35,300 nt of DNA from Bilabrum cf. latius (GCA_965178125.1 CBCXTV010000012.1:1-35300), one strand, 5' to 3'. Shown: positions 161 to 30,093, counted from the stretch's first letter. Program-made: numbers and translations. Notes: generated by a model from the letters alone, not told the origin.

Positions 161-574
161 TGGACGCTCCGGGCCGGCAACGGTGGATCCTCGCTCAGAG
201 CACGGAGGGCTGGTGCACGGTCCGAAGCGCAGGCGGTCGCATGCCTCATCTTCCAATAAGAAACGCGGGCAGGCGGAAGGTGGCGTTCACTCCTGGGGAA
301 TGCTTGTGTGACTGTGAGAGTGTGTGCAAACCGGAGGAAAAAAAAAACTTCAGACTATCACAGCGTCCGAGGACGCAACCTCGAAAGAGGCATCTATGAC
401 GATTATGATCTCGTTGGGAAACTCTCAAATGGAAGCCCAAGAAAATACGACCGCCAAGTCATAAGGCGACAGTGCCAAACAGAAGACGGGCACACACATG
501 AAACACCGAGCACTGTCCCATTGGAGGCCAAGCGCTCTCCGGCAAAATGCGACATGTGAGTACGTCGTGTCATA

Positions 575-1030
575 GCATCCCCTTACCTGTCAATGTGCAA
601 GGCGAGTCCCCCTCTGATGTCCCTCAGCCTACCATTCGACCGTCAAAGATCCGCCTCGGAGCTGGGCTGGGCCTTCACTTCAACATAGGGACAAGCACTG
701 ACTTGAGACACGCTGCAAACACATGTTGTTCATGCCAGGAGGCTGTGCCATGTCAACACCTTGCTGCCAGTGAGGATGCCCATCCTCTTTCGTTCTACAA
801 GCCCCTGCGCATACCACTCGACCGTCAAAGATCGGCCTCGAAGCCGGGCCCGGCCTTCACAGCAACATAGAGACATCCACGGAAATGAGACACCCCGGAA
901 ACACACATTATTCATGCGAGCGGCCTGTGCCATGTCCACCCTTAGCCGGTCAAGGTGCCATGCCGAGTCACTTGTTCAAGCCTGCGCGCCTGCCACTCGA
1001 CCGTCAGAGATCGCCCTGGAAGCTGGGCAA
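575..1030. repeat. Three degenerate ~180-bp tandem repeats
   Basis: Core CCA(C/T)TCGACCGTCA(A/G)AGATC at 632, 814 and 993 (spacing 182 and 179). A related core lies at 20580, and the block is repeated at about 21990-22445. Confidence 0.8.
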
Positions 1031-1038
1031 AACTGTCC

Positions 1039-1124
1039 CGCGCCCGGGCCTGGCCATGGCCCGGGCCCGAGGCCCGGGCGCCAGGCCCGGGCCAGAGGCC
1101 GGCCCGGGCACCGGGCCCGGGCCC
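1039..1124. repeat. GC-rich palindromic GCCCGGGC tract
   Basis: Clustered GCCCGGGC/GGCC palindromes; also present at about 22453-22538. Confidence 0.7.
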
Positions 1125-1345
1125 AAAGTTTGACGGCACGAGCAAAGATGTCGGACCTTACTTCTGCGGGCGGGACGTCCGCCCTGTCGGCCCGCATGGG
1201 CAGTTGAGTCCGCCGCCCGGGCGCTTCCCGGGCAGAGGGCGCGCGCTCCCGCGACGGGAGGCGAAGCGCTCACCCTTCGGCGCGGCAAAGCGCTCGCGCG
1301 GGCGAGGCGAAGCGGCCTCGGGCGGCCAAGCACCGGCCGCCGCAC

Positions 1346-4083
1346 TCATCCGGAGGAGAGCTCCTCGTCGGACTCGAGGCCCTCCTGCGCCCAGTCGGGG
1401 CCCAAGAAGTAGTCCCACAAGTGCCGGTTGTAGAGCTGCTTGTAGAGCAAGGCCTCGTGAGGCGCCGCCGTCCGGGCGTCGTCGAGCTCGAGCGCCACCG
1501 GCTTGTACCAGGTAGTGTCCGCCTTGGTGTTGGTGGGGGGGGGGGGGGGGGGAAGAGGGGGAAATGGGTGGGTGGGCTTTGTGGTCGCGGGTGGGGCTGA
1601 GCGGGGGGTTTCTGGGGAGGCAAAGCGCTCTCCCGGTGAGAGCAAAAATCAGAACGCCAATGACCGCAACCGCCTCGGCCAACTCAGCGAAGACCCGGCG
1701 CTGGTAGACCGAAATGGCCTGCCGGCGCTTCCGCGCTTGCTCCTTCGTGAGGCGATGGACCACCTCGTCGAGCGCTCGCTCGTCACACACAAGCTGCTCC
1801 GCCAATCGGGTGATAGGGCTGGGTCTCCCCCCCGGGGTGGTGCCGTAGCCCTCGGGATCCTCTCTGAGCATCGCCGGACCGCGGTCCTGGCTCTGGAGCG
1901 GACGAGCTCTCCTCCCCGCGCGGCCAAGCGCTCGCGGACCCGCATGCTGCTCGGACCTTTCCTTCCATGCCCGGCGGGCGGCCTGCTCTTGCTGGTTCGG
2001 GCTCACAGGCGGGCCGATCCATTGACCATGCCAGTCAACCCACCATCTCCGCCACAGCCTCTCCGACCAGGCCGGGTCGGAGACTGCCGTCGGGGGGAGC
2101 TGCGTCTTCCAGTGCAGCCCCGGAGCGCTCAAGTTGAGCTTTTCAAGCCACAGCGGTGGCCCTTTGTCCGTCCACCCGCAGAGGTGCCGCTCGCCCTTTG
2201 CGCAACGGAACCCCTCCCCGACCCAGCTATTCTTCCAGCTGGAGTTGCGGACCCATCGGCCTTTCTCGCACCCGCTCACATGGGCTTCGTACGACCCGGC
2301 GCTCGGCCATAAATAGCAGGCACCTACGGTGTTCTGCGCCCCGCCGGCGAGCCACTGGGCCAGGATAATGTCCAGGTGATTGGGCGTGGACCTTTCGAGC
2401 ACCTCAAGAAAGGCCGCCGCGAAAGTTTTCGTGAAGGCGACGAGGGTCGTGGCATGGCCCGGCTGCCACTTCCTATGGGATTGGCCCTCCCAACAAAGCC
2501 ACACGAAGTTCCCACGACCTTGGCGCGCCGCTGCGGTCGCGATGTGGATCAGATCCACGAGCTCCTGCGACGGTTTCGCCTTCGGAGGCTTGTGCTTCCA
2601 TCCCAGGAAGCACCTTTGCTGCGCCTTTTTGGACGCTTGGGACACCCGGAACTTTTTCGCCTGCCGCTCGTGCCCGTCTGTGCCCGGCGCGGCCGGCGGG
2701 TCTCTCCCCTCGGTTTTGGCGGAGGTCCCAACGGTCTGGGGCGAAGCGCTCCCAGCTGAGCCCGGCAAAGCGCTCGGGGCGGAGGGCGTCACTTGGCCGA
2801 CGTCGTTTTCCTGTTTTTCCTCCTTCGTCGTGGGTGCTGTCGGTCCCGCAGCAGCGGGTGGGGAGGAGGCGGGAGGCGAAGCGCTCTCCCCGGTTCGCTC
2901 CGGCGCGCTCGGTTGCGCGCTCTGGGTTCCCGAGGGGGCGCCCCGAGGTTCCGACCCCGCCCCTGTCGCCGGCTCTTCCCTCGTCGACACGAAGAGGGCG
3001 CGGACGTCCTCGTGGAGCTGCTGCGAGATCGTCTTGCCAGCGAAGCTGCCCCAGTGTCGGTTTCTGTCCGCCCAGCAATCCTTCTCGTACATGCGGTAGT
3101 CGCCTTCGGCCAGGATGAACAACGTGTCTTCCGCATAAGAGACAGCCGGGGGTCGACGCAATGCCGAAGGAGTATGTCCTTGGATGGAAATGGTTATCAA
3201 AACAGGCCTGCAGGCCCCCCTCCCCCCCCCCCCCCCCCAAAAAAAAAAAGGCCTCGAGGCCCCAAGATTTTTCTCTGGTCTAATCGTCCTTCCAGAAGTG
3301 GAAGACGGCGTGCCTCCTCTCGCAAGCGGGCTCTCTTGACGCCGCCCGTCCCACCATTTCCACACACTGGCAGGGGCGGAATCTCATCATGTACGGGAGG
3401 GTCGCGACCTCGGCTTCGTCCTCGTGGGTGAGCGTCATCACCTTGAGGCATGGCTCGGGTGTCCAATGGCCCCGGGGCTAAGCGCTCCCGGTTCACCGGG
3501 CCACGCGCTCGCGGCGCTGCCGGGGCCAAGCGCTCCCGGCTTCACTGTCGCCTTCTCGGGCCCCCGCACCCCGCGCCACTTCCCACCCGGCCCGGCGCTC
3601 CCACCCCAAGAAGGCCCTCCGCCCGTCCCGCCCTGTTCCCGGATTCCCCCCCGCCCCACCGCCCGCCCGGCCCGGCCCGAGGGAACGGACCCACCCAAGA
3701 CATATGCACGACAACAACATGAACCTGCACTGGCCGCCCTTCGATGACCTTCAACGTCGACTGCGGGTTGAACCTCGCCGGGGCGCTGTTCAACTGCGTC
3801 CGCGCGTACTCCGCCGCGAAGAACTGCAGGTCATCATGGATCTTCTTCGCCGCCGGGCTCGTCGGGTCCAATGCTTTCCCATCAGCTTCTGCCACTCCTG
3901 CTCAGTGTAGGCCTCGGCGCCGCCGGACTGGTAATTCGTGACTTCGTGCACGAACGCCATCCTCGTCTCCTTCTCCGCCTCCTCCCATCGCTTCTGGCGC
4001 TCGTCCGTCGTGAGGAGGTTCTCCCTCTGGTGCCGGCCTTTCACCTGCTTCAGCCAGTCGTCGCCGGACCCGCCGGACGCCAT
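1346..4083 (-). CDS. Multi-exon, frameshifted gene with GT25-like (GT-A fold) glycosyltransferase motifs
   Basis: Ordered motifs VHVVVVHMS, TLFILAEGDY, NFVWLCW, GHATTLVAFTKTFAAAFL, HLDIILAQWL and YLWPSAGSYEAHVS resemble the GT25 pattern (IyvInL, lIlEDD, gt-aY-is--gA--ll, piD--l, y---P-----S). A predicted last intron 1673-1523 (GC..AG) joins FAELAE to ADTTWYK in frame. The upstream exon structure and the link to the ATG at 4083 are uncertain. Confidence 0.5.
1523..1673 (-). other. Predicted GC-AG intron (151 nt)
   Basis: GAG|GC donor and AAG|G acceptor. Removing it fuses two protein-like frames in phase and skips a low-complexity poly-C tract. Confidence 0.65.
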
Positions 4084-4284
4084 GGCGGGGCGCGCTCGCG
4101 CCCCAAGGGGTCCACTGGCGGCTAAGCGCTCGCCGTGCCGACGCGGCTGAAACGATGGCCACGAGCGCGGGCGGAGGCGACTCACCAGACACCGGACTTT
4201 CCTTGTCATGCAAGATGCCCGGGAAGCCCCCGGCATGGACGGCAAAGCGCTCGCCCTGTGCCGGGGTGATCTCCGTCCCTGAGA

Positions 4285-4644
4285 TCATGGCCAGAGGACA
4301 CCCTTCTGCTTCAAATTCACTTCGCGCAAGCGTGCCCCCCCCCCCGGCATGCCCACACCGAGCAATGCACACCGCTGCTGGAACTCCCAGCAATCCCTCC
4401 CTGCGACGGGCAACTTGGCATTCGGATGCCTCCGGTCCAACCACAGCATGTAACTTCGCAAGCGTTTGTCTTGCGTCTCGAAATTCCATGTCTCCCCGGG
4501 CTGTACCGGCTCCAAAGGCCCCATCATGCCATCGAGCAAACATGGCTGTCCAGGACCCCGCTTTTGCACCCATGCTAGGTACTGCCTCAGGCCCTCCGGG
4601 CCCGCTCGCCCGGAGAGTTCGCCCATGAGCCCTGACTGCGCCAT
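4285..4644 (-). CDS. Hypothetical 119-aa protein (MAQSG...)
   Basis: ATG start, protein-like composition (LRQYLAWVQKR, LRSYMLWLDRRH), and the frame is kept in the internal duplicate. Confidence 0.55.
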   Translation of the reverse strand: MAQSGLMGELSGRAGPEGLRQYLAWVQKRGPGQPCLLDGMMGPLEPVQPGETWNFETQDKRLRSYMLWLDRRHPNAKLPVAGRDCWEFQQRCALLGVGMPGGGARLREVNLKQKGVLWP

Positions 4645-5270
4645 GTTCGAACCGCCGCGTCTGCAGACACCCTTGTTACTCCAAGCGTGACGACCTCATG
4701 CGTCGACAAGCTCGAATGCGAAAAGAACATGACGCACACGGAGACCCACAAAAAAAAAACACATGCAACTACCTGAGGTCGATGGGAGAGGTTTGCCCTG
4801 AACGCCACAGCCACCAAGGGGTCGCACCCAGCCAACAACGCGTTGCCACCCAGGTGTCGGGACAGTCCCGGCGCTGGTCTTCCTCCGCACCGCGGCCAAG
4901 CGCTCGCGCCTCCGGGTGCGCGGCGAAGCGCTCGCGCTATCCATGTACTTTCTCCGGTTGCACCGTCGCCGGCGCGGGGCCGGCAACAGCAGCGCGCCCG
5001 CATGGGACGACCTTTCCGGCACGCAGGCGGCCCCGATTTTGGGGCTGGATTTTGGCCCCGAAATCTGCGGGCCAAAGGGTGTCCCCCAACTGTTGGCGAT
5101 CCCCTCTTTCGAGCACACCTTTCGGGACCAAAATCCGGCCCCGAAAACAAGCCCGCCCAAGGGCGCTTTGCGTCACGCTACTGTGGGGTCCTCGAGGGGC
5201 CCAAAAAAACGAACCGGGGACGGGACCCGAAAAGGGTCGCGACCGGGGCCCCTTTTCAGGGGCCGTGGTC
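4645..5270. promoter_or_regulatory. Shared upstream non-coding module, copy A
   Basis: Diverged homology to about 13172-13780. Both copies lie directly 5' of a minus-strand ATG (4644 and 13141). Confidence 0.45.
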
Positions 5271-5400
5271 TCATGAGAGCTAGACTGATGTTCACCTGGA
5301 GGTGAGGCCCTGCCTCGGCCCGACAAGCGAAGCGCTCCGTCTCCCCGCTCCACCCGGGTCGGCCCATGCGGAATCCGGCGGCCGTGGCAGTTGGCGGTAG

Positions 5401-5990
5401 TCAGTGACCCAGGATGGGCCTCGAGATGGGGCCGGCGAAGCGCTCGCCCTGTGGTCCCTGCGATAGGAAGAGCTGGGAATGGCGCCTCTTCTTTCCCTGC
5501 GTCTGCTGAGAACCGGCGGCTGCAGCAGCGTCGCGGGCTGCGGGGCTGCTTGACGCAGCCCCTGTCGCGCTGCTGGGGCCCAGCGTCCGGGACTCAGAGC
5601 CGGCGCCTGCGGCTGGGGCTGGTGCTGCGGTGCTGCTGCACGCAGCCTCTGTGGCCCTGCCATGGCCCAACGCCAGCGGCTCAGTCGGCTGAGGCTGCTT
5701 CTGTGGCGCATCGACCTTCTTCGGCAAGCCCCATTTCTTCACATAGCTCCAAGCCCGAAAGTCCGCGTCCGTCCACAAGCCCTCCTTCCAAGTCCGCCAA
5801 TCATTGCCGTCCCACTTCTGGGCGCGGCGCCAAGCTGCCTCCCACTCCTCCTTCTCTTGTGGGGTCCAGTCGCGCTCAGCCGCTGCAACGCCCTCGCCGC
5901 GGTGGCCTTCATCGACGCGGCCCGTCGTGCTCCCCTCGAGCCGAGTGACGCGGAGGCCCATCCTCGCCAAGTGAGCGCCCAAGTCGTCAT
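5401..5990 (-). pseudogene. 5'-truncated copy of the Trp-rich ORF
   Basis: About 5484-5988 matches about 7714-8220, but its start is replaced by the duplicated 3434-type block. Also present at about 26779-27366 and 33864-34450. Confidence 0.65.
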
Positions 5991-7261
5991 CACCTTGAGG
6001 CATGGCTCGGGTGTCCAATGGCCCCGGGGCTAAGCGCTCCCGGTTCACCGGGCCACGCGCTCGCGGCGCTGCCGGGGCCAAGCGCTCCCGGCTTCACTGT
6101 CGCCTTCTCGGGCCCCCGCACCCCGCGCCACTTCCCACCCGGCCCGGCGCTCCCACCCCAAGAAGGCCCTCCGCCCGTCCCGCCCTGTTCCCGGATTCCC
6201 CCCCGCTCCACCGCCCGCCCGGCCCGGCCCGAGGGAACGGACCCACCCAAGACATATGGACGACAACAACATGAACCTGCACTGGCCGCCCCTAGTCGAT
6301 GACCTTCAACGTCGACTGCGGGTTGAACCTCGCCGGGGCGCTGTTCAACTGCGTCCGCGCGTACTCCGCCGCGAAGAACTGCAGGTCATCATGGATCTTC
6401 TTCGCCGCCGGGCTCGTCGGGTCCAATGCTTCCCCCATCAGCTTCTGCCACTCCTGCTCAGTGTAGGCCTCGGCGCCGCCGGACTGGTAGTTCGTGACTT
6501 CGTGCACGAACGCCATCCTCGTCTCCTTCTCCGCCTCCTCCCATCGCTTCTGGCGCTCGTCCGTCGTGAGGAGGTTCTCCTTCTGGTGCCGGCCTTTCAC
6601 CAGCTTCAGCCAGTCGTCGCCGGACCCGCCGGACGCCATGGCGGGGCGCGCTCGCGCCCCAAGGGGTCGACTGGCGGCTAAGCGCTCGCCGTGCCGACTT
6701 TCCTTGTCATGCAAGATGCCCGGGAAGCCCCCGGCATGGACGGCAAAGCGCTCGCCCTGTGCCGGGGTGATCTCCGTCCCTGAGATCATGGCCAGAGGAC
6801 ACCCTTCTGCTTCAAATTCACTTCGCGCAAGCGTGCCCCCCCTGGCATGCCCACACCAAGCCATGCACACCGCTGCTGGAACTCCCAGCAATCCCTCCCT
6901 GCGACGGGCAACTTGGCATTCGGATGCCTCCGGTCCAACCACAGCATGTAACTTCGCAAGCGTTTGTCTTGCGTCTCGAAATTCCATGTCTCCCCGGGCT
7001 GTACCGGCTCCAAAGGCCCCATCATGCCATCGAGCAACCATGGCTGTCCAGGACCCCGCTTTTGCACCCATGCCAGGTACTGCCTCAGGCCCTCCGGGCC
7101 CGCTCGCCCGGAGAGTTCGCCCATGAGCCCTGACTGCGCCATGTTCGAACCGCCGCGTCTGCAGACACCCTTGTTACTCCAAGCGTGACGACCTCATGCG
7201 TCGACAAGCTCGAATGCGAAAAGAACATGACGCACACGGAGACCCACAAAAAAACACATGC
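5986..7261 (-). repeat. Internal ~1.3 kb duplication of 3434-4766 (5' part of the GT25-like gene plus the MAQSG ORF)
   Basis: Near-identical sequence that lacks about 57 nt (equivalent to 4140-4196). It contains ORFs 6639-6292 and 7142-6786. Confidence 0.9.
6786..7142 (-). CDS. Second copy of the MAQSG hypothetical protein (118 aa)
   Basis: Near-identical to 4285-4644. Confidence 0.55.
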   Translation of the reverse strand: MAQSGLMGELSGRAGPEGLRQYLAWVQKRGPGQPWLLDGMMGPLEPVQPGETWNFETQDKRLRSYMLWLDRRHPNAKLPVAGRDCWEFQQRCAWLGVGMPGGARLREVNLKQKGVLWP

Positions 7262-7423
7262 GGTCCCAGAAAGGATGCGGTGCCACCTGGCCCAACACGA
7301 GCTGGTGTACTAGGCGTGCGCGGCGCTACGCCGAGTTTAAGGTGCCGATCAGCTTCCTCTGCAACCGCTACGCCACCTGGACCCCTGCCACACAGAGAGA
7401 CGCCCGGTCCCTGCCACACAGAG

Positions 7424-7532
7424 CCACGCGGGCGGGCGAGCGGCCGCCCGCGCGGCCGGGCGGCCGGGCGGCCGGGCGGCCGGGCGGCCGGGCAGGCGGG
7501 CGGACGGCCGGGCGGGCGGGAGGGCGGGCGGC
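7424..7532. repeat. (GGGC/GGCC)n low-complexity tract
   Basis: Direct reading; also present at about 28803-28910. Confidence 0.8.
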
Positions 7533-7661
7533 TCGCGTTACGAAGGTGGGCTCCAAATCCACACTCAATTGACCTAGGCCTTCTTTTGCCGATCTCTAAA
7601 GCGATCGCACCGCGGAGTGAGCGCCTCGCGTCGCGGGGCGATGGGCTCCCGCCGTCGCCGA

Positions 7662-8286: not shown

Positions 8287-8700
8287 CTGCTCGCCGCGCC
8301 GGGAGCACAAGACGCAACAACAACAACAACAAAAGGTGTCCATATGTTTGCGAGCACACGAAACATTGGCATGCTGCCGGACCGCGGTCCAGGCTCTGGC
8401 GCGGACCAGCACTCCTCCCCCCGCGGCCAAGCGCTCGCGGACCCGCATCCAATGAACAGACCGCGCGTGGCCGAGGGCTCCTCCGCCGCCATCAGCTCGC
8501 CGCGCCGGGAGCACAAGACGCAACAACAACAACTTGCTCGAGAACAAAAAATACGGAGCCCGTCCGATGAAGGTGTCCATATGTTTGCGAGCACACGAAC
8601 ATTGGCATGCTGCCGGACCGCGGTCCAGGCTCTGCGCGGACCAGCACCCCCCCCCCCCCCCCCCCCCCCCCCCCGCGGCCAAGCGCTCGCGGACCCGCAT
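8241..8700. repeat. Two-copy tandem duplication spanning the start of the Trp-rich ORF
   Basis: ATCCAATGAACAGACCGCGCG at 8241 and 8447 (period 206). In the next unit it occurs at 29617 and 29855 (period 238). Confidence 0.85.
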
Positions 8701-9500
8701 GCTGCTCGGACCTTTCCTTCCATGCCCGGCGGGTGGAAAAACACGCACTGGTGAATGGTAGGTCCCCACGACCTGTTGGCGTTCCCCCTTTCGAGCACAC
8801 CTTTCGGGGCCAAAACCCGGCCCGCGAAGCGTCCCCACGAACTGTTGGATATCCCCTCTTTCGAGCACACCTTTCGGGACCAAAATCCGGCCCCGAAAAC
8901 AAGCCCGCCCAAGGGCGCTTTGCGTCACGCTACTGTGGGGTCCTCGAGGGGCCCATAAAACGAACCGGGGACGGGGCCCGCAAAGGGTCGCGACCGGGGC
9001 CCCTGTCAGGGGGCCGTGGGCAAGACTGATGTACACCTGGAGGTGAGGCCTTGCCTCGGCCCGACAAGCGAAGCGCTCCGTCTCCCCGCTCCACCCGGGT
9101 CGGCCCATGCGGAAATCCGGCGGTCGTGGCAGTTGGCGGTAGTCAGTGACCCAGGATGGGCCTCGAGATGGGGCCGGCGAAGCGCTCGCCCTGTGGTCCC
9201 TGCGATAGGAAGAGCTGGGAATGGCGGCCCGCGGGCCTGCTGCGACTAGAGCGTCAAAGTCGACAAGGTCCCCAGAAAGGATGCGGTGCCACCTGGCCCA
9301 ACAAGAGCTGGTGTACTAGGCGTGCGCGGCGCTACGCGGAGCTTAAGGTGCCGATCAGCTTCCTCTGCAACCGCTACGACACCTGGACCCCTGCCACACA
9401 GAGAGACGCCCGGCCCCTGCCACACTGAGAGATGCCGACGGCGCGCTGCCAGCGGAAGCACATTGGGCGAAGCGGACCCGGACATCCTCGAGACCCTGGA

Positions 9501-9692
9501 GAAATCCATGCCGGCGCCATCGAAATCCATGCCGCCGCCGCCATCGAAATCCATGCCGCCGCCATCGAAATCCATGCCGCCGCCACCGAAATCCATGCCG
9601 CCGCCGCCATCGAAATCCATCCCGCCGCCAGCACCGAAATCCATGCCGCCGCCACCGAAATCCATGCCGCCGCCGCCATCGAAATCCGTGCC
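9501..9692. repeat. Minisatellite GAAATCCATGCC(GCC)nA(T/C)C, 9 units of 21/24 nt
   Basis: Units start at 9501, 9522, 9546, 9567, 9588, 9612, 9636, 9657 and 9681. One minus frame reads MDF(D/G)GGG(G). Confidence 0.95.
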
Positions 9693-9876
9693 GGGCGTGC
9701 GCGGCGCGACGAGAGGCTGAAGATGCCGATCAGCTTCCTCTGCAACCGCTACGCCACCTGGACCCCTGCCACACGGAGAGACACCCGACCCCTGCCACAC
9801 AGAAACATGCCGACGGCGCGCTGCCAACGGAAGCACATGCCGCTAGTGTAGAAGGCCCGACGCCGCCGCCGCCACC

Positions 9877-10018
9877 GAAATGCATGCCGCCGCCACCGAA
9901 ATCCATGCCGCCGCAGCCATCGAAATCCATGCCGCCGCCACCGAAATCCATGCCGCCGCCGCCACCGAAATCCATGCCGCCGCCATCGAAATCCATGCCG
10001 CCGCAGCCACCGAAATCC
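9877..10018. repeat. Same minisatellite, 7 units
   Basis: Direct reading. Confidence 0.95.
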
Positions 10019-10739
10019 GGGCCGCGATCTCCCTGCGAGGCCCGGCCTCCTGATCGAGGCTGAGCGCGGACGATAGGAAGAGCTGGGAATGGCGCGCGGT
10101 CCGCGAAGGTGTGACGCGGGCACTTTCCACGGAGCAAGGCGCATTCGGTGTCCATGCCCCGGAGCGAAACCTTTTCGGGGATACGTGCGGATGAGGCTGG
10201 CCGATGCAGAATGAATGATATCATCGAGCGCACGACCTCGCTTGCCGCACCCGTTCTTCTACGCCGCGGCGTTAGATTCGGCGAGAGCGAGCTGCAACCG
10301 CCGAGAGCGGTACTACAGCTCCGTCTCGCCAGACACGACACTCAATCAATTTGCCCACCGTCACTTTCAATCAAATCCGCTAGAATTTCCAGCGCTGTGC
10401 GGGAAACGCGAGATTCAGAACGCGCACCTCCGAGGAATTCCTGTTCGAGACTTTCCCCTGGCTTTGACCCAGCACTGGTGGTTGAGGCCACAGCGGCGGC
10501 CGAGCGGGTGGCTGCAGCAGCGGCGGCCGAGTCCGCAACGGCGGCGGTTACGGCAGGGGACCCCGCAAACCTCTCTACAGGAACAGGAAACCGAACGCCA
10601 GGTTTGCTGGGTGGAGACCCCAGAACCCTTGGCCATGAAACCTCGCCATAGAAGGAAGGAGAGGCTCTTCGGCTTTATGACTCTGGGATAGGAAGAGCTG
10701 GGAATAGCGGGCGGGCAGAAGTCCGGCCAGCCGGCCACC

Positions 10740-10846
10740 GAAATCCACGCCGCCGCCGCCGCCATCGAAATCCATGCCGCCGCCACCGAAATCCATGCCG
10801 CCGTCGCCACCGAAATCCATGCCGCCGCCACCACCGAAATCCATGC
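10740..10846. repeat. Same minisatellite, 5 units
   Basis: Direct reading; units of 21, 24 and 27 nt. Confidence 0.95.
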
Positions 10847-11930: not shown

Positions 11931-12339
11931 GCGGAGAGCAGGTGGAAAAAAAAACGCACTGGTGAATGGTAGGTCTGGGGCTGGGCATCGCCGGACCGCG
12001 GTCCGGGCTCTGGCGCGGACCAGCACTCCTCCCCCCGCGGCCAAGCGCTCGCGGACCCGCATGCTGCTCGGACCTTTCCTTCCATGCCTGTTGGCGTCCC
12101 CCCTTTCGAGCACACCTTTCGGGGCGAAAACGCGGCCGGCGAAGCGTCCCCACGAACTGTTGGGGGACACCCTTTGGCCCGCAGATTTCTGGGCCAAATT
12201 CCGGACCCCAAAACAGGTCCGCCCAAAGCGTTTGTGGGCCGGGCTCTCATGCGGTTCTGTCGGGACCCAGAAAAGGCCCGCGACTGGTCCCAGTACCGGG
12301 GCCGCGTTCGGGCCCCCTTTCAGGGGCCATAGGCGCCTG

Positions 12340-12870
12340 AGGGAAATCCTGATGAAACGAAACTGGACGGGAAACTGGACTGAAAATTCATGCGACCAAG
12401 GCAGCGAGTGACGGGAAACTGCCGCGCGAAGATGCTGAAGCTTCGCACATGAAGGGAAAACCCGTATGGGGTTCCGGCACTGGGGACTCTCCCTGGTGCA
12501 AGCCGACGACGATATGTCGGAGATGACTGAGGGTGGACGCATGGCCGCTGTACTGCACAGGTAACTGACACGAACACTCTGCATGACACATGAGTTCGCA
12601 CACTTTGTCCTCGCGAGGCCCGCTCAGCCGCCGCACCCCATGCTGTCCGGCGATGCCGCCTCGCCCCCAGGCCCAGCGGACTGCCTCGGGCGGTCGCTCA
12701 TGTCCTACGCCGAGCGCGCCCCGCGCCCGACCGGAAAAGCTCTCGGCCTCAGCTTGCGACGAGTCGACGCCCATGCGGAGAGCGACTGTGCAGCAAGTGG
12801 GGGCACTCTGAGACCCAGGACGGGCCTCGAGAGAAGGCCGGCAAAGCGCTCGGCCGTTGCATCCTGCCGG
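12340..12870. repeat. Diverged direct repeat of about 13790-14330
   Basis: Shared anchors GGAAACTGGACTGAAAAT, GCGCGAAGATGCTGAA, GCTGTC.GGCGATGCCGCC and GGGCCTCGAGA...AAGCGCTCGGCC. Confidence 0.8.
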
Positions 12871-12907
12871 GGCCTCGGCTCATGGGCCGAAGCCCCACTG
12901 GCGCGGC

Positions 12908-13141: not shown

Positions 13142-14380
13142 GACTTCGCCTGGCGCGAGCCCACGCCGCGTGTTCGAACCACCGGGACAGCTGACACCCG
13201 GGTTACTCCACGAAAGACACACTTATGTATCGAGAAGCTGAAATGCGAGAAGAACATGACTCGCACAGAAGCCGACAAGATATGCTCAAACCTGAGGTCG
13301 ATGGGAGAGGCTTGCTGTGAACGCCGCGGCCACCAAGGGGCCGCAGCCAGCCAGCAACGCTTATCCACCCAGGTCTCCGGACACACCCGGCGCCGGTCCT
13401 CCTCCGTTTCGTTGCCAAGCCCTTGCGCTCGCGGTGCGCGGCGAAGCGCTCGCGCTGTCCATGCAGCCCCCTCGGGTTGCACCCTCGCCGGCGCGGGGCC
13501 GGCCACAGAAGGCGCCCGCATGGGACGACCTTTCGGCGCGCAGGCGGCCCCGACAATGGGGCCGGAATTTGGCCCCTGAGTGTGCGCGCCAAAGGGGCAA
13601 CGCCAGTTGTTGGCGTTCACCCTTTCGCCGGCACACTTCGGGGCCAATTTCCGGCACCCAAAAAAAATCCGCGCAAAGCCATTGTGGGGCGAGCTGGTAT
13701 GCGGTTCCGGAGGGGCGCAAGAAGCCCCCCCGACAGGTCCCGGTACGGGGGGCGCGTTCTGCCCCGCTTGCAGGGGCCATGAGCGCCTGAAGAAAAACTG
13801 ACGTAAGAAAGCACGAAAGGAAACTGGACTGAAAATCCATGCAACGACATCCGCGACTGATGGGAAACAGCTGCGCGAAGATGCTGAACCTTCGCGCATG
13901 TGGACAAAAACGCGCATGGGTCTCCTGTAGTCGGCACCCTACCTGGCGCAAGCCCACGACGCTATGTTGGACAAGGCTGAAGAAGGACGCATGTCCGCTG
14001 TACTTGTATGCTCACTCTCACGAACAATCTGCATGAGCACATGACATCGCACAATTTGTCTCTCGCATCGCGCCCTCAGCCCCCGCATCCCAAGCTGTCG
14101 GGCGATGCCGCCGCGTCCCCAGCCCCCGGCCGAGTGCCTCGGGCGGTGGCGAATTTCCTACGCCCGGCGAACCCCGCGGCCGACGGGAAAAGCTCACCGT
14201 CTCAGCTTGCGCCTTGTGGACGTGCATGCGCAGTGCGGCTGTCAAAGAATTGGAGGGAATAAGAGACCCACGACGGGCCTCGAGAAAAGGCCGGCGAAGC
14301 GCTCGGCCTGTGCATCCTGCTTTCGGGATGCCGCCGGCAAGACGCTCGGCTCCCCACCCCGGCGGCCAAGCGCGCGCCCC

Positions 14381-16180
14381 TCAGGGTTGGGTCACGGGGA
14401 GGCACTGCTCGACATCCTCCACCCACATCGGCCTCCTGACACGCTGAAGGTACGAGTTCTCTGTCAACCACTCCGCGTCCGTTTCGCTCATCTTCGACAC
14501 CTCCTGTCTCCAGTTGTTTGTGGAGATGACGAGTTTCTTGCCTCCCACGAACACGCGCCGCGCGTGACAATTGGTGGCGCTTTGGTTGATGCCGATTGGG
14601 ACCGACTGGGCCTGAAATAATTTTTTGTTCGCTATGACTTGCGCGGGGCACGCTTCGTCAAATAGCAAGAGCTCATGTGTCATTTCGCAATACCCCTCAA
14701 AGTTCAACGGAACATTGCCGCTGCAGGTCATTTCGAAGACCTGGCCCTTGGGCACTAACGCCCGGCAGTACGCTGTTTTCCCGCGCTGCGATGGGCCGTC
14801 TAATACTAAAAAGTAATATCTGTCGCGCACAAATCCGTATTGGGACACCCACTCTTCGATCAAAGGGTACCGTCTCCACGGTTTTTTCACCTCGGACGAG
14901 TTCGCGGCGCGATATTCCAGGTAGCGTTCCATTGCCTCTTCTTGCCGGGCTTTCGCGTACTCCGTCAGCCATAGCAGATTCCGAGTGATGCCGTTAGGCA
15001 CTTTCCTCAGTTCCGCTCTCGCGTCAGCTATGGTTATTTTCCCGCTTTCTAGATGGCCTAAAATCCAGGTCCCAGTCACCTGGAAATCCTTATGGGGCTC
15101 ATGGGACCCTGCGGCCATGAGCGAGGTCACCTTCGGCATCAACAGGTAATACATGCCCGCGAAGTGGTTCCGACCAGAGCGTATGAGACGCGTGCAGTCC
15201 CCACTGTGGAATGGGGCTCCCCCTCGGAAAAGCGTGTCGTCGACTTTCACTCTCATTTGCCTGCCGCCGTAGGCGGCCACAAACGCATGGGCATGTACCC
15301 TCGTCGCCTCCGCCCCGCTCCGGTCGCAGAGCTCAAGACACCAAGCCATAAAACACTGCGGGTATTTCTCCCGGAATGCACTGGCCCAGGCCTCGAGGTC
15401 CGACCACAGAGCGAGGACGCGCGGATCCTGCCGCAGCCGTGCCGTCTCCGCCTGTCTCTCCTTTGCCACCTTCTCGAAACAGAAATCAGCAAGGGTCAAA
15501 ACCGCCGGGGCTTCCCCGGCCACCCGCATCGGGTCCGGCAAAGCGCTCGGATGAGACCCACCTTCCTGTTCCTCTTGTACACTGAGAGGCGAAGCGCTCT
15601 CTCCTGGAACCGCTGGCCGTTGCTCCTGGCCTGCCGCATGCGCCCCGGAGAGAAGCCCCCAACCCCCTTGCCAAGTCCAGACCGCACTGCGCATGCGGTG
15701 TATCCCCTCTTCGCCCCGGGACCTACCGGCGCTCAGCAACCGCGCAGCGATCTCGGCGAGGTCTGGGTACGCCCGGACGAATTTCGTCAACCGGTCCTTC
15801 CGCTGCGCGTAGTCCAGGTCCTTCAAGCACCAGTATTTCGTCATCGCGCTTTGCCGTTTGAATGTGGCTCTCCGATACCCCGTCTTCCTCTGCCACCAGT
15901 AGACGTACTTGTTGTGGGCCCGCTTGCGGTCCGCGCTGTTCAAAGGCTCGTCGGGGTCCTCGAGCTCCGCCAAAATGGCTTCGAGGTCGATGTCCACTTC
16001 TGCTTCCGCCTCAACATTTCCAGGCGCGTCCGGCTCGACCGCGGGCTCCGGCGCAGACGCGGGCACCTCCACAAGCTCCATCGCCTCGATGGCCGTCACG
16101 CGCCGGCGCTTTGGCGGCCGGGGATCCGAGGGCGTGCCATGCAAGGCTCCCGCGCGCGCCGACGTCGCGGGTTCCGCCAT
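14381..16180 (-). CDS. rep: CRESS-type replication initiator Rep (HUH endonuclease + SF3 helicase), 599 aa
   Basis: Motif I-like AVWTW, motif II VHAHAFV, motif III-like MYYLLMPK, Walker A LVLDGPSQRGKT, Walker B LLLFDE, motif C LVISTN, and C-terminal EWLTENSYLQRVRRPMW resembling gemini/genomovirus Reps. Start placed at ATG 16180 (MAEPAT); the ORF is open to 16492. Confidence 0.92.
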   Translation of the reverse strand: MAEPATSARAGALHGTPSDPRPPKRRRVTAIEAMELVEVPASAPEPAVEPDAPGNVEAEAEVDIDLEAILAELEDPDEPLNSADRKRAHNKYVYWWQRKTGYRRATFKRQSAMTKYWCLKDLDYAQRKDRLTKFVRAYPDLAEIAARLLSAGRSRGEEGIHRMRSAVWTWQGGWGLLSGAHAAGQEQRPAVPGESASPLSVQEEQEGGSHPSALPDPMRVAGEAPAVLTLADFCFEKVAKERQAETARLRQDPRVLALWSDLEAWASAFREKYPQCFMAWCLELCDRSGAEATRVHAHAFVAAYGGRQMRVKVDDTLFRGGAPFHSGDCTRLIRSGRNHFAGMYYLLMPKVTSLMAAGSHEPHKDFQVTGTWILGHLESGKITIADARAELRKVPNGITRNLLWLTEYAKARQEEAMERYLEYRAANSSEVKKPWRRYPLIEEWVSQYGFVRDRYYFLVLDGPSQRGKTAYCRALVPKGQVFEMTCSGNVPLNFEGYCEMTHELLLFDEACPAQVIANKKLFQAQSVPIGINQSATNCHARRVFVGGKKLVISTNNWRQEVSKMSETDAEWLTENSYLQRVRRPMWVEDVEQCLPVTQP

Positions 16181-16407
16181 GGCCCGCGCAGGCCCCGGGC
16201 GGGCCCGTCGCGCGCCTGGGGCGAGGGGCTCCGCATCGCGCCTGGACCGGGCGGCTATGCATGCGAAACAAGGCGCGTCTTGCGAAAAACCTCGATTTCC
16301 CCCACAATACCAGCCTTTGGCGGCGCGGGACCCTGGAAATTGCGGCACGTCCCGGAGAAGGCAGATGGGAAAGTGCATTTTTCGCAAGCCCTCTAGGCGA
16401 AACGGCA

Positions 16408-16690
16408 GGCTGAATCGGAGGCTGACACTTCCCGAATCCTTCCCCCCATATTGTTGCGCGATTTCCAGCCAATTCAGCCTCGGATGACTCAAATCCTTTT
16501 AAATATTAACACGCGAGGTGAGTCAACCAAGGCTGAAACTCACGACATTATGGGGGAAAGGAGTCAGCCTCGAAACGGGCACATCCGGCTGAATCCTTCC
16601 CCCCATATTGTCGTGCACATTTCCGCCCCGGGCGATTCAGCCAATCGCGAAACACCATAAGATCATGGCTCCAGCACCCCCTGAATCGGA
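16408..16690. promoter_or_regulatory. Putative rolling-circle origin: stem-loop plus iterons
   Basis: Arms 16473-16491 and 16519-16537 are complementary at 17/19 nt around a 27-nt loop containing TTTAAATATTAAC. Repeats of 25-29 nt lie at 16434 (direct), 16541-16569 (inverted) and 16587-16615 (direct). Confidence 0.65.
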
Positions 16691-16799
16691 CAAATGCCCA
16701 CCACATCCGGCTTCTCCGCTCGTTCCCCCGGCTAGGAGCCTCATTTTGGCGCGGTTTCCACATGGCTGCCGGCTCCTGCCCGCCCTGCCGTCGCGCACT

Positions 16800-17205
16800 T
16801 TCCGGGCCCGCCCCGGCCGCGGACCCCGTCCCCGCATTGGCCGCGGCCCACATGGCTGGCGACGGCCCACATGGCTGGCGGCGGCCCCGCGCCCCGCCGT
16901 CGCGCGCCGTCTGGGCCGGCTCTCCGGCCCGGCGTGCCCGGCCGGGTCCCGCCCGGGACGCGGGCCGCGTCCCGGCCGAGGCCGGGCCCGGCCGGGACGC
17001 GGCCCGCGCCTCCTCCCCCCCCCCCCCCCGCCCGGCCGGGACGCGGGCCGCGTCCCGGCCAGGGCCCGGGCCGCGGCCCGGGCCCAGAGCGGGTATCTGC
17101 CCGCGCCCGGCTTCGGCGCCGGGCTCGGGCGACGCGCCCGGGCCCGGCGCAGAAGCCGGGCCCTGCGGCCCGGGCCTCAGCCCGGGCCGCCGGCACGCGC
17201 CCCGC
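16800..17205. repeat. Extremely GC-rich tract of nested palindromes and short direct repeats
   Basis: CCGGGACGCGG(G)CC x3, CCACATGGCTG x3 (first copy just left of the tract, at about 16758) and many CCGGGCCCGG. Confidence 0.7.
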
Positions 17206-17653
17206 CCCATCTTTGGCGATGCCGTCCAATCACTCAAATCCAAAACAGCCAAGGGCACGATCCCCGCATGCCGCCCACCGTGGCCTTTCCCACCTCGCTG
17301 TCGCTTCTGCCCGCAATGTCACGACGACCGCAAAACAAGTCGCTTCACAGGCGGACCTCTCAGGTCCCACAGCCGCACTCACGAGCGTGGCAACCCGCAT
17401 TCAGCCACGAAAATGCAACGAAAGCGAAGGCAAAAATGCAAGCAACGCGAACGGCCTGTTCCACAACGGCGCATGCGAGAACTCCATGGGCACTGCCGGG
17501 CCACTGCACATCCCTTGGGACCCGCTTTTCGGGGCGCACCGGAAAAAAATAGAGGGCCGGACCGGTCCGCGGCGTTTTGCCACGGGCGGCTTTGGCGCCG
17601 TCGCGGGACAGACGTCGGCGCCAGGCGCCAGGGGGGGGAAAGGCGTAAGCGCC

Positions 17654-18073
17654 TCACTCGTCGCAGGCCCTCGGCGGCACTTCGCCGCCCACCAATCCGG
17701 CGGCCAGGCGCGCGCCCTCGGCGGGCTCCGTCGCGCCCGTCGCCGCGGCAGGTGGAGGCGAAGCGCTCTCCCCGGCGGCGGCGCTGCCCGCGCTTGAAGA
17801 ACTCGGCGCGGCCTCCCGTTGGTCCTTCCGCATGAGAAGCACGCTGACGAGGTCGTCGTCGCTCATCAAGCGCGCGCGCTTCTTCAGGCGGCTCTGGCGT
17901 TTCCTCGCGTTCTTCACCTGGCGGGTCAAGTCCTTCTTCACCTTGTTCGCCGCGATCTGCTCCTGCTTCAACCTCTCAATCTCCGCCCGGGCCGGATCCG
18001 CCGGCAGCGCCTCGAAGACGCTTGCCATCGCCGCGGTCACGACCGCGGAGTCTCCGGAGCCCGCGGACGCCAT
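17654..18073 (-). CDS. Small basic coiled-coil protein (139 aa)
   Basis: RAEIERLKQEQIAANKVKKDLTRQVKNARKRQSRLKKRARLMSDDDLVSVLLMRK. The ATG at 18073 overlaps the transposase 3' end by 37 nt. Confidence 0.7.
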   Translation of the reverse strand: MASAGSGDSAVVTAAMASVFEALPADPARAEIERLKQEQIAANKVKKDLTRQVKNARKRQSRLKKRARLMSDDDLVSVLLMRKDQREAAPSSSSAGSAAAGESASPPPAAATGATEPAEGARLAAGLVGGEVPPRACDE

Positions 18074-20037
18074 GGCAACAAGCGGCGCCCGATGGGCAAG
18101 CGGCGGCGGCCAAGGGCAAGGGAGTCGTCCTCTCCGACGGCTGCGGCGACTGGGGACGCGGCCACTCTCTCGGGCGCCACCACATGCGAGCTGCTCCGCA
18201 GGCGGCCCACCCAGGGATTGGACCCTCCCGCTCGTTCTGCGGCGGCGTAGGGCGCGGCAAGCGCTCGCGCTTCTTCGCCCGCCCTGGCACGAGGATATCC
18301 GAGTACAAGGGGAAACAAGCGATCCACAGGGATCATGCGCCCGCGAGGGAAGATAGACTCGAAGCCGGCCAGCGCGGGGAGGCAGCCGCCGTCGAGGAAG
18401 CCCTCGGGCGCCGGGCCGAGCTCCTCTAGGAATCGGTTCGACGTCGGCCACGCCCCATGCAAGCCGCAGAGGGCGAAGGCGTTTCGCCAGTCCCGGCCAC
18501 TGACCACCCCGGTCACCGCGTCCGCGAGGACCGCCAGGAGATCCTCGATGGGGAGCTCGGCGTCGCGGCGACCCAACTGCTGCCCTTCCATGAGGACCCG
18601 GATGCGGTGCTTTAGGGGAGCGAAGACGGCCACATCGCATGGTTGGAGCCACCGCGTCGCGAGCGCCGGCAAGAGGTGGTAGTGGCATCCGGCGCGCGCC
18701 ACCGCGGCGGCGACTTCCTTCGTCGTGTGGACCGGGCAGGCGTCCATAGAGAGGATAATGCAGCGATCCAGTGCGACGGGCCTGAGGCTGGCCTTCAAGA
18801 CGTCCATAATCTTCGCGAACCCGGCACCGTCCAGCCAGGAGCTCTTCTGTCGCAGCAGGACGACCCGGTCGGTGCGGCCAGCGTTGAAGGTGGCCGCGGC
18901 AGCAGCAGGGACGAGGCGATCGTTGACGACGAAGATTTGCGGCAGCAGGGGTTGCACTGCCGCATCGTCGCACACGAAGCAGATGTAGGAAAGCGCGCTC
19001 CGTCGAGCGCGCAGGGACGCTCTCTGTTCCGGCGGCTGCCGGCGGCCGGGAAAGCGCTCGGTCGCAATGGCGCCGGGCCTCGGCGGCGGGAAGAACTTGA
19101 CGGAGCTCTCGTCCATGTTAATGCGCAGAACAGGGCGGCCCCCGGCGCAGCGGCGGGCGAGGAAGCGGTCCCACTGGAATGTCGCCAGGGCCTGTGCGAG
19201 AGCCGGGTCCCCGGCGGGCCCGCCGGAAAAAAAAAGGGGCCGTTTTTTTGGCCCCGAAATCGGGGCCGCCTATTAAAATCACAACACAGGGGGGGCCAGA
19301 AAACGGCCCCTGTTTTTTCAGGCCGGCCCGCCGGGGGACCCGCTTTTTGGCCGCCTCGGGGCCCGGTTCCCGCGAGCCTTCGCGCGCAAAGTGTCCCGGT
19401 CCAGGCGCGGCCCCATGGTAGGCGCCCGCAGCCTCACTCGCCAGCGCCGCCGCCAGCGCAGGATCCATTTCCGCGGCGGCCTCTCAACACGCCCCCCGAT
19501 GTGGCCGCCGGCCCCAACGGCGGCGGAGGGCCCGCCGGGGAGCGCTCCGCGCCATTGCCGCCAGAGGTATGTGTAGGTCGGCGCGAGGCCGGCGTCCATG
19601 TTCAATCGGGCCACCCACTCGCACAAGCTGCGCTCCCGGAGGAAGCGTTGCGCCGCCACCGCTGTGCGCTCGTCGGGAGGCCCGGCCACCGGCGCCGCCT
19701 GGGGCACCGCGCCGGGCGCCTCCGGATCCCGCGCAGGCAGGGCCGCGGCATGCGGCTGGGGCGAAGCGCTCCCAGCGTCGCCGGACCGCCTCCGCTTGCA
19801 GTCACGCTGCCGGAGGTACTCCGCTCGGGCCTCGGGCCCACCGGGGCCCGGCAGGGACGCCGCAATGTAATCCGCGACGGCCTGTGTGCGACTATCTCGC
19901 TTCGGCCGCGGCCGGGCGGCGCTGCGCTTCTGCTCCTTCGCGCGGCGGAGCGCGGCCGCGACCGCGCGGGCCTCCGTCGCAGCCCGCTCCCGCTCCGCGA
20001 CCAGGTCCTTCAGGGAGGCTCGAGGCACCGCCGGCAT
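18037..20037 (-). CDS. pogo/Tc5-like (DDE_1) transposase, two exons (20037-19378, 19191-18037), ~604 aa
   Basis: Exon 1 has a CENP-B-like HTH (ERSLCEWVARLNMDAGLAPT...KWILRWRRR). Exon 2 has catalytic INMDES, ILSMDACPVH and WLQPCDVAVFAPLK, with 35 residues between the second and third Asp. The splice is in frame. Confidence 0.88.
19192..19377 (-). other. Predicted GC-AG intron (186 nt) in the transposase
   Basis: AAG|GC donor and CAG|G acceptor give DTLRAK-ALATFQWDRFL...RINMDES in phase 0. Confidence 0.8.
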
Positions 20038-20439
20038 CGGCGAGGACTGTATTGCGGGGCAGGGCGCCGACAAAAGTCACGACGGTGGAACTGCCATCGT
20101 TGCGCTCGCGCAATGCCCCTGCAACATATGAGCAAAAAGGACGCGGATTCCTCCTCCGGACACTCGCGCGTGCGGCCAAGTGCTTTGGGCCCCACCCCGA
20201 ACCCGGGGGGGGGGGGGGGGGGCGGGAGAGCACAATGCCAATGAGCTTGCGGGCCAAGCGCTCCGCGACACGGTCTCTTACTGAAACACCGACGGCGACC
20301 TGTCTGTGGAGGTCAAGCGCTCTCCTCGAAACGCGCCGCAAAGCAGCGCGCCGGAACTCTGGGCGATCCAGCGCCTAATTCCCGGGATGCTCAGCCCAGT
20401 ATCCTCATGATCGCCCTCGCATCAACAAGGCGACGGGCG

Positions 20440-20935
20440 CTGAAGTGAAACACCCTGCACTGTCTCGGTGGAGGCGAAGCACTCTGCGGGCAAATGCGAC
20501 ATGTGACGAGGCAGTGTCATGACAACCTGTTGCCTGTCAAGATGCCATGCCGAATCCCTCTTTGATGCCCCTGCGCATACCACTCGACGGTCAAATATCG
20601 GCCTCGAAACTGGCCTGGGCCATGACGAAAACAAAGCGACAAGCACTCAATTGAGACATAATGCAAACACACATTTTCATGCGAGGGGATGTTCCATTTC
20701 AACCCCTTGCCTGTCAAGGTGCCACATCTAGTCCCTTTTGCAAGCCCCTTCACATGCCAGAAAACGACCCTGATCGTGCTCCCGCGACGGGAGGCGAAGC
20801 GCTCACTCTTCGGCGCGGCAAAGCGCTCGCGCGGGCGAGGCGAAGCGGCCTCGGGCGGCCAAGCAGCGGCCGCCGCACTCATCCGGAGGAGAGCTCCTCG
20901 TCGGAGTCGAGGCCCCCCTGCGCCCAGTCGACGCC
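20440..20935. repeat. Diverged direct repeat of the unit's left end (about 495-770 and 1243-1400)
   Basis: Shared AAATGCGACATGTGA and GACAAGCACT...TTGAGACA...TGCAAACAC anchors, plus a near-identical DWAQ(E/G)GL(E/D)SDEELSSG* gene end. Confidence 0.85.

Positions 20936-21650: not shown

Positions 21651-21765
<115 letters not shown>

Positions 21766-30055: not shown

Positions 30056-30093
<38 letters not shown>

Follow-up and report, generated by a model that had tools for sequence, protein, structure and literature searches.

A one-strand octamer in a repeated Rep- and transposase-encoding element of Bilabrum cf. latius is the tip of dispersed hairpins with copy-specific arms

A repeated element carrying a polar octamer

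The stretch of Bilabrum cf. latius DNA analysed here (GCA_965178125.1, CBCXTV010000012.1:1-35300; 35,300 nucleotides (nt), called the window, with positions counted from its first letter and the presented strand called +) consists of about 1.65 copies of a unit of ~21.4 kb, which contains internal modules of ~2.5 kb and whose second copy is mosaic. The unit encodes a Rep-like protein with an HUH motif, a protein with a DDE_1 transposase domain, and a conserved protein termed P0001. An earlier sequence-only reading of the window had drawn attention to an octamer, AAGCGCTC, said to saturate one strand of the element, coding regions included, and had interpreted it as an oriented cis signal analogous to Chi, KOPS or uptake sequences. 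The octamer proves to be the unvarying tip of a larger cassette of ~20-26 nt, a hairpin whose arms differ from copy to copy.

The window contains 68 exact copies of AAGCGCTC on the + strand and none on the - strand, its reverse complement GAGCGCTT being absent from +. In 100 dinucleotide shuffles, the octamer appeared 2.5 times on average and never more than 7 times. The hand count in the sequence-only reading was accurate: exactly 38 copies lie on + between 530 and 20828 in the first unit, the 23 coordinates that it listed all appear among the exact matches, its failure to see reverse-complement copies on + holds across the window, and the stretch that it described as free of the motif (about 20830-21940) has no copy between 20829 and 21943. 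The pairs it noticed 24-60 nt apart have start-to-start spacings of 24, 24, 24, 28, 48, 48, 51 and 59 nt in the first unit, and the different reading frames it reported are seen as translations of the motif to SA(S/L)P, ERF or RAL in open frames.

The same reading had proposed that octamers be counted against a Markov background once duplications were collapsed. Self-blastn with masking of all later copies leaves 15,630 bases, which hold 24 copies on + and 0 on -, compared with Markov expectations (order 1-3) of 0.69-1.20 and 0.46-0.61, respectively. Both the enrichment and the polarity therefore survive deduplication. When all 8-mers of this non-redundant sequence are ranked, AAGCGCTC with its 24 copies comes directly after the A8 homopolymer with 33. 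One-mismatch variants in the first unit number 18 on + and 13 on -, the latter representing background, as against 38 exact copies on +; decayed copies are thus rare, because the variants barely exceed what the opposite strand contains. Alignment of the unique contexts lengthens the conserved word to GGCNAAGCGCTC. Base composition on + is skewed towards C and A in most bins.

The octamer as the tip of a hairpin

On the + strand the cassette is laid out as 5'-arm (4-6 nt)-GCNA-AGCGCT-complementary arm-3', and the innermost pair of the lower stem joins the first G of GGCN to the last C of the octamer. Arms include GGAG/CTCC, GCGCG/CGCGC, CCGGG/CCCGG, CTGGG/CCCAG, GGCCG/CGGCC, TCCG/CGGA and GCGG/CCGC. 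Four or more consecutive Watson-Crick pairs are formed at 21 of 27 unique sites, compared with 8.8% for arms drawn from different sites, and shifting the register reduces the mean pairing run to 1.5 or less. Pairs 1-4 are Watson-Crick in 89-93% of sites, with GC, CG, AT and TA all in use.

A formal count of pairs was made on a 27-row alignment with 500 shuffles. Three measures exceed every shuffle (0/500 reach the observed value): the proportion of paired cells (84.7% versus 65.2% shuffled), the number of cells changed on both sides (42 versus 18.8) and a covariation score (0.48 versus 0.148), which does not rise above 0.21 in slid registers. Two weaker measures, pairs with any double change (477/500) and pair types (109/500), do not stand above the shuffles. 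Relatedness among rows is a minor concern for these statistics, because the rows are mostly unrelated sites and not the tips of a family tree; the paralog groups among them are 4926/13444, 5438/12844/14297, and 1264 plus 1288 with 20797 plus 20821.

Structure prediction for six sites, each folded as + strand DNA and as - strand RNA, gave the stem, bulge and loop in 12 of 12 cases. Each predicted fold combines a lower stem that varies from site to site with a single bulged base (T on +, A on -), an invariant upper stem of G-C/C-G and a 3-5-nt loop; the energies are modestly better than those of shuffled sequences (z -0.5 to -2.8). The free N of GCNA is G in 10, A in 7, C in 7 and T in 2 of 26 contexts. 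Among the stem mismatches in pairs 1-5 of 25 sites, G.T on the + strand outnumbers A.C by 5 to 1. A covariance model built from the 27 sites and run with filters off placed 72 matches on the + strand ahead of any on -, where the highest score was 15.9 bits (E 0.13). These comprise the 68 motif copies, 27 of which were used to build the model and match by construction, and four extra degenerate copies at 14356, 7629/29006 and 12725. The individual copies are as follows.

522-541, +: hairpin, arms GGAG/CTCC, spacer GCCA; 4 consecutive Watson-Crick pairs
1256-1275, +: hairpin, arms GGGAG/CACCC with one A.A mismatch; paralog at 20797
1280-1299, +: hairpin, arms GCGCG/CGCGC; 5 pairs; paralog at 20821
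1615-1634, +: hairpin, arms GGGAG/CTCCC, just beyond the conserved C-terminus of P0001
1918-1937, +: hairpin, arms GCGCG/CGCGG, within a ~100-nt module recurring at 8429, 8681 and 12043
2736-2755, +: hairpin, arms CTGGG/CCCAG; 21-nt run the same as in the copy at 19764
2760-2779, +: hairpin, arms CCCG/CGGG, translating as PSALP in the P0001 frame
2871-2890, +: hairpin, arms GGGAG/CTCCC, translating as GESASP; 22-nt run the same as in the copy at 17761
3472-3491, +: hairpin, arms CCGGG/CCCGG; duplicates at 6032, 24875, 27411 and 34496
3520-3539, +: hairpin, arms GCCGGG/CCCGGC; duplicates at 6080, 24923, 27459 and 34544
4116-4135, +: hairpin, arms GGCG/CGCC; duplicates at 6680, 25519, 28056 and 35142
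4237-4256, +: hairpin, arms GGACG/CGCCC with one A.C mismatch; duplicates at 6746, 25639, 28122 and 35208
4890-4909, +: hairpin, arms CGCG/CGCG; abolished by substitutions in the 78% paralog near 13416
4918-4937, +: hairpin, arms GCGCG/CGCGC; 22/22 the same in the 78% paralog at 13444
5322-5341, +: outlier, a motif copy that lacks a regular stem (0 consecutive pairs); duplicates at 9071, 30489 and 33793
5430-5449, +: hairpin, arms GGCCG/CGCCC with one C.C mismatch; duplicates at 9180, 26816, 30597 and 33901
12836-12855, +: hairpin, arms GGCCG/CGGCC; old paralog of 14297 and 5438
13436-13455, +: hairpin, arms GCGCG/CGCGC; highest-scoring copy under the covariance model, 35 bits; old paralog of 4926
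14289-14308, +: hairpin, arms AGGCCG/CGGCCT; 80 nt downstream of the Rep reading-frame end (14384) in the sense direction
14356-14383, +: degenerate copy, core AAGCGCGC, arms GGCG/CGCC; abuts the Rep reading-frame end
15533-15552, +: hairpin, arms TCCG/CGGA, in a Rep linker (PSALP)
15584-15603, +: hairpin, arms GAGAG/CTCTC, in a Rep linker (GESASP)
17753-17772, +: hairpin, arms GGAG/CTCC; downstream of the DDE reading frame in the sense direction
18251-18270, +: variant with 3-nt spacer GCA, arms GCGCG/CGCGC pairing only in that register (by eye); 20.9 bits
19044-19063, +: hairpin, spacer GGAA, arms with an internal G.T
19756-19775, +: hairpin, arms GCTGGG/CCCAGC
20248-20267, +: hairpin, arms GCGG/CCGC
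20307-20326, +: hairpin, spacer GTCA, arms GGAG/CTCC
21944-35215, +: 30 more exact copies in the second, partial unit, all duplicating contexts of the first

Scans for pairs of motifs covered metagenome contigs (at least 119 stretches) and IMG/VR (44 stretches), together 163 unrelated loci. A flanking stem of at least 4 bp accompanies G[CGT]NAAGCGCT at 10 of 319 sites in these listed loci, compared with 49 of 68 in the window, and none of the loci among the listed matches has two or more stemmed hairpins or is a relative. The listed metagenome matches are unrelated bacterial or tandem-repeat sequences, and the 10 scanned loci richest in the motif are tandem repeats or scattered copies in GC-rich sequence. 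The exact class-I hairpin was found in 113 stretches of prokaryote genomes and 1 of IMG/VR; it is a single copy in 113 of these 114, and the remaining one is a tandem array. Rfam 15 gave no match in the window at the gathering score, no relatives came from protein-based locus searches of IMG/VR, whether with the Rep or the P0001 alignment, and a short-protein search over the Rep linker returned one match, which leaves the linker uncovered. Literature searches on the motif strings gave, among the papers listed, what look like chance occurrences of the sequence in unrelated work. Splice sites, Pol III boxes, an E2F-like site and a restriction or methylation target were considered as identities for the motif and dropped, as none accounts for covarying arms.

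Placement of the hairpins among the genes

Homology supports three open reading frames (ORFs) in the first unit.

1158-3365, -: P0001, conserved protein without a Pfam family; 6 relatives at 41-49% identity, conserved over about residues 76-575
14384-16498, -: P0008, Rep-like, with HUH (HAHAF), YYLLMPK, Walker A GPSQRGKT, LLLFDE and ISTNN
18040-19269, -: P0010, DDE_1 (pogo/Tigger-type) transposase domain, 25 bits against a cut-off of 22

All three lie on the - strand and all copies of the motif on +, which makes the hairpins antisense to all recognised genes. In the Rep, residues Y450, Y451, P455 and K456 are invariant among seven relatives, and a protein-feature search places the protein beside Cressdnaviricota Rep clusters, as a lead only; Pfam and PDB sequence searches with it gave no match. 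Pfam, run over 30 ORF translations of the window, some of them overlapping, reported only DDE_1 above the cut-off, and no capsid or RNA-binding domain was recognised among them. The AlphaFold model of P0001 has a mean predicted local distance difference test score of 36 and is unusable.

The hairpins are located in protein linkers, in ORF extensions past conserved C-termini and in intergenic DNA. The claim that coding regions are included thus holds for linkers and extensions but fails for the protein cores: none of the 24 non-redundant copies falls within the 2,712 nt of homology-supported cores, where 4.2 would be expected (P about 0.01). In linkers, the motif reads as GESASP, PSALP and GSASP in P0001 and the Rep, as RAL in P0001 and the DDE protein, and as ERF in the DDE protein. 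Copies also occur soon after the conserved end of each gene, at 1623 for P0001, at 14356 and 14297 for the Rep, and at 17761 for the DDE gene. The P0001 relatives (P0002-P0007) carry iterated linker words of their own (APSPSPAA, RPSPVPE, TEPTAG) where P0001 has hairpins, and these peptide words may reflect lineage-specific DNA words.

History of the copies

Comparisons between paralogous segments that are 66-78% identical indicate how copies persist and disappear. The 22-nt hairpin window was kept in four of six comparisons (22/22, 20/22, 20/22 and 18/22 positions), and the two differences between 12844 and 14297 are the free N and the outermost position of the window. In the other two comparisons the hairpin was lost (15/22 and 18/22) through clustered substitutions with no indel. 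Cassettes of 21-22 nt are identical across unrelated contexts (2879/17761 and 2744/19764), and the arm classes are few and recurrent. A Rep relative at 64-69% identity (P0012) has the peptides GESALP and PSALPDP, which are compatible with both linker hairpins; in Rep relatives at 33-35% identity, the linker is of equal length and the motif peptides are absent. Given this retention in paralogs, loss by substitution, sharing of cassettes and equality of linker length, the copies seem to have been spread or renewed by short-patch copying or by selection in place, not by cut-and-paste insertion.

The repeat family and other features of the unit

The sequence is present in public runs of at least six organism codes from ten studies, as well as in marine sediment and mat metagenomes. 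One run, X3, contains 11,120 contigs over 10.6 kb, with identities from below 90% to above 99% and summed word depths of 10^4-10^5. These contig numbers, identities and depths point to a very high-copy, diverged repeat family. In aligned contigs, 0 of the 40 variable places listed, out of 221, fall in a motif copy, which is too few for a test of conservation.

The arrangement of the array shows several irregularities. Positions 1-160 are identical to 19370-19529; the preceding unit consequently appears ~2 kb shorter, which suggests a mosaic array and not a clean tandem one. The second unit has a run of 110 A at 21654-21763, where the first unit (240-350) has 10 A preceded by ~95 nt of unique sequence. 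As the two segments are almost equally long, either a real expansion with a deletion or an assembly or base-calling artefact is suggested. Contigs of each of the four aligned runs have 7 letters in place of the 111-nt segment at 11976-12086; the core of this segment, ~100 nt long, bears one hairpin and recurs at 1926 (in the P0001 ORF linker), 8429 and 8681. Module breakpoints at 4142/6698 and 12867/14320 lie 11-16 nt past a hairpin. A recombination hot spot at hairpins is not claimed, the independent breakpoint events being too few.

Between the Rep and DDE genes, at 16936-17193, is a cluster of long GC-rich palindromes with arms of 25-28 nt that are 79-93% complementary. Word depth spikes ~20-fold or more in the bins over these palindromes in runs X5 and X6, and the cluster could be the real origin or end of the element or a distinct repeat that is itself abundant. 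At 9501-10025 and 10734-10846 (and at 30917-31442 and 32156-32213) there are tandem repeats with units of 21 and 24 nt, all on one strand; on the - strand they translate as glycine-rich GGGMDFGG/GGGMDFDG, for which Pfam gave no family. The lower-GC spacer contains, at 600-1030 and 20440-20760, repeat units of ~180-190 bp that are 76-77% alike. One unit bears the hairpin at 530, and the paralog of this unit near 20470 shows the motif in decayed form, AAGCACTC. Long homopolymers of C or G, reaching 28 C, occur at 8647-8674, 1540-1555 and 20207-20222, and one of them lies directly 5' of the hairpin at 8681, where paralogs show CTCCTCCCC.

Comparison with known systems

Bacterial REP/BIME sequences are short, GC-rich and imperfectly palindromic. 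They lie outside genes in either orientation, many of them in inverted pairs, and are conserved over the whole palindrome; their partners, the RAYTs, are IS200/IS605-like Y1 HUH enzymes without a helicase. The hairpins described here resemble them as short GC-rich imperfect palindromes that fold, are dispersed in many copies and have an HUH enzyme nearby. In contrast to REP, the present copies are all direct, have variable arms and enter the ORF linkers of P0001, the Rep and the DDE protein, and the present Rep, unlike a RAYT, carries helicase motifs (Walker A/B, motif C), its resemblance to CRESS Rep clusters being a lead only. CRESS-DNA virus origins likewise link a stem-loop to a Rep with HUH and superfamily-3-type helicase motifs. 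Such an origin, however, is a single intergenic copy with an AT-rich, NANTATTAC-like nonanucleotide in its loop, whereas the window has 24 independent copies and no nonanucleotide in the hairpins.

Chi, KOPS, uptake sequences and cyanobacterial HIP1 are, like AAGCGCTC, over-represented words found in coding and non-coding DNA, and Chi and KOPS are also polar. None of them needs complementary flanks. HIP1 is a perfect palindrome and hence has no polarity; copies of uptake sequences are spread over both strands, frequently in inverted pairs, whereas the - strand here has 0 copies. The analogy with Chi, KOPS and uptake sequences drawn in the sequence-only reading accordingly finds no support, since such words are plain duplex sites and the flanks here covary as a stem. 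Its broader proposal of an oriented cis signal is retained in part, as the hairpin form fits the single-strand options that it also named (coating of single-stranded DNA (ssDNA), second-strand priming and packaging). Miniature inverted-repeat elements (MITEs) differ in that the window's copies share no terminal inverted repeats, the arms being variable, have no target-site duplication by eye (no formal scan) and show no indel in paralogs.

The sso sites of Rep-driven replicons are hairpins with a conserved loop that are recognised on ssDNA in one orientation. PMC13037366 describes ssi sites and GCGAAGC mini-hairpins in similar terms. These replicons have one or two sites, whereas the element has about one per 650 nt. 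The mini-hairpin is defined in PMC13037366 by GCG(N)AGC with a sheared G.A pair; in the window, the N of GCNA is G in 10 of 26 contexts. Dispersed packaging signals of single-stranded RNA viruses and of hepatitis B virus pregenomic RNA, according to PMC6281560, PMC5699041 and PMC7612645, also comprise many stem-loops of one polarity in coding sequence, with variable stems and a short shared loop motif, as in the window. The signals described there reside on packaged RNA genomes with a known coat protein, whereas no capsid family was found among the 30 ORF translations. The feature is filed as a dispersed hairpin cis-repeat and not as a member of the REP/RAYT, ssi/sso, packaging-signal or CRESS-origin families: defining features of REP/RAYT repeats and of the CRESS origin were looked for and found to be lacking, and the number of sites sets it apart from ssi/sso, as the lack of a recognised capsid family in the scanned ORFs does from the packaging signals.

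What might read the hairpins

The reading tentatively favoured, with considerable reserve, is that the cassette may be a strand-specific hairpin signal on ssDNA, with the element's own HUH Rep as the prime candidate reader. It would be a structure-dependent cis signal for a protein that touches the invariant loop and bulge and recognises them when one strand is exposed in single-stranded form. The hairpins could serve as Rep entry or nick sites, or as ssi/sso-like start sites for the complementary strand, and exposure of one strand would explain the single polarity. HUH enzymes act on single strands, commonly via hairpins. A single-strand reader is suggested because covariation with arbitrary arms is not needed by a protein that binds duplex DNA. 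Two features are consistent with ssDNA of the + strand: the element encodes an HUH Rep, and G.T exceeds A.C in pairs 1-5. Mini-hairpins of the GCGAAGC type occur at complementary-strand priming sites of ssDNA phages, at those of plasmids and in ssiA, as reported in PMC13037366, and GCGAAGC is present in 10 of the 26 copies.

Several observations weigh against this proposal. The G that the GCGAAGC mini-hairpin needs is missing from 16 of 26 copies. Six of the 27 unique sites have fewer than four consecutive pairs, and 5330 and 18259 have none in the standard register, the former having no regular stem and the latter pairing only if its spacer is taken as 3 nt. Wobble over pairs 1-6 is 7 to 6, and the 5-to-1 count is too small to decide which strand folds. 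The C/A-rich + strand is the opposite of what cytosine deamination would produce on an exposed + strand. CRESS-type Reps normally use a single origin with a conserved nonanucleotide, and a NANTATTAC-like nonanucleotide is not enriched in the window (8 one-mismatch matches versus 6.6 expected, none in a hairpin). Finally, an RNA signal would account just as well for the shared orientation of the copies and all three genes.

An RNA signal would take the form of an element in the sense (- strand) transcripts, 5'-arm-A-GC-GCUUN-GC-arm-3', acting as a protein-bound stem-loop with a bulged A. Its roles might include 3'-end formation, stability, export or RNA packaging. Doubtful in itself, this explanation is nearly as likely as the ssDNA signal. 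Besides the shared orientation of copies and genes, it draws on the copy that follows soon after the conserved end of each gene, on stable predicted RNA folds (-10 to -17 kcal/mol) and on a sense strand that is G+T-rich across the window, a skew generally understood to fit one-way transcription. Protein-binding RNA hairpins, moreover, are typically built with a fixed bulge and loop on a stem that varies, and the dispersed copies recall viral packaging signals as presented in the sources cited above. On the other hand, sense-strand G.U mismatches are rarer than + strand G.T (1 versus 5), some copies lie in tandem-repeat and intergenic DNA, such as the one at 530, and the scanned ORFs yielded no recognised RNA-binding or capsid domain. 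The cassette might also be a functionless selfish or mutational by-product, a quasi-palindromic micro-repeat spread by short-patch gene conversion or template switching that perfects the arms. Such an origin would account for the same 21-22 nt cassettes in unrelated contexts, the few stem classes, direct pairs 24-59 nt apart, local 24-25 nt tandem arrays that hold the motif, and the clustered substitutions, with no indel, by which copies were gained or lost between paralogs; distant Rep relatives with linkers of equal length and no motif peptides fit it as well, and very high copy number would supply many conversion donors. It is nevertheless an unlikely explanation of a strict 68-to-0 polarity, of the near absence of decayed copies, of a bulge and loop that are invariant while N is free, and of retention in paralogs that are 66-78% identical. 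Exclusion from protein cores does not discriminate against it, being expected under any model.

Identity of cassettes across contexts, an encoded HUH enzyme and the 111-nt module, which carries one copy and is present or absent in contigs of all four runs, could instead bring to mind a miniature mobile insertion, MITE-like or REP/RAYT-like, in which a discrete piece of ~20 nt is cut and pasted. This is highly improbable: the flanks have no target-site duplication (by eye, no formal scan) and no shared terminal repeats, the arms vary between copies, the sites show no length change in paralog and homolog comparisons, and the copies are all direct, none inverted. Still more remote is a plain polar word on double-stranded DNA, whether of the Chi/KOPS type, a transcription-factor site or an uptake site. 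Strong over-representation, complete polarity and an AGCGCT core that is palindromic, as in sites for dimeric proteins, would suit such a word, yet a duplex reader does not need unrelated arms to covary so as to keep their complementarity, and the 4-nt GCNA renders the site asymmetric.

Implications

For dispersed hairpins that combine a fixed tip with free stems, there are precedents in bacterial REP elements and in the packaged genomes of RNA viruses. We know of none from a eukaryotic DNA element with a Rep and a transposase, a point to which no literature search was dedicated; searches of the literature on the motif (among the papers listed) and on Reps and transposons, also not dedicated to it, showed no eukaryotic Rep-plus-transposase case. 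A broader and rather unlikely proposal is that a eukaryotic mobile element with a CRESS-type Rep bears a strand-specific "hairpin code" along its full length, including the linkers of its own proteins. Loop and bulge would be fixed and stems interchangeable, and the reader would be the HUH Rep or a coating or packaging protein acting on a single-stranded intermediate. Such a code would be a eukaryotic counterpart of REP/RAYT systems or of dispersed viral packaging signals, and related lineages may each have their own word.

The cassette offers a sharp and inexpensive test object, an oligonucleotide of 22 nt in which loop, bulge and compensatory stems are defined. Given the extreme abundance of the element in several marine sequencing runs, such a cis code could bear on the replication, packaging and recognition of very large repeat families. 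If the motif instead proves to be genome-wide and to follow the gene strand, it would represent a new RNA-level signal of the source organism.

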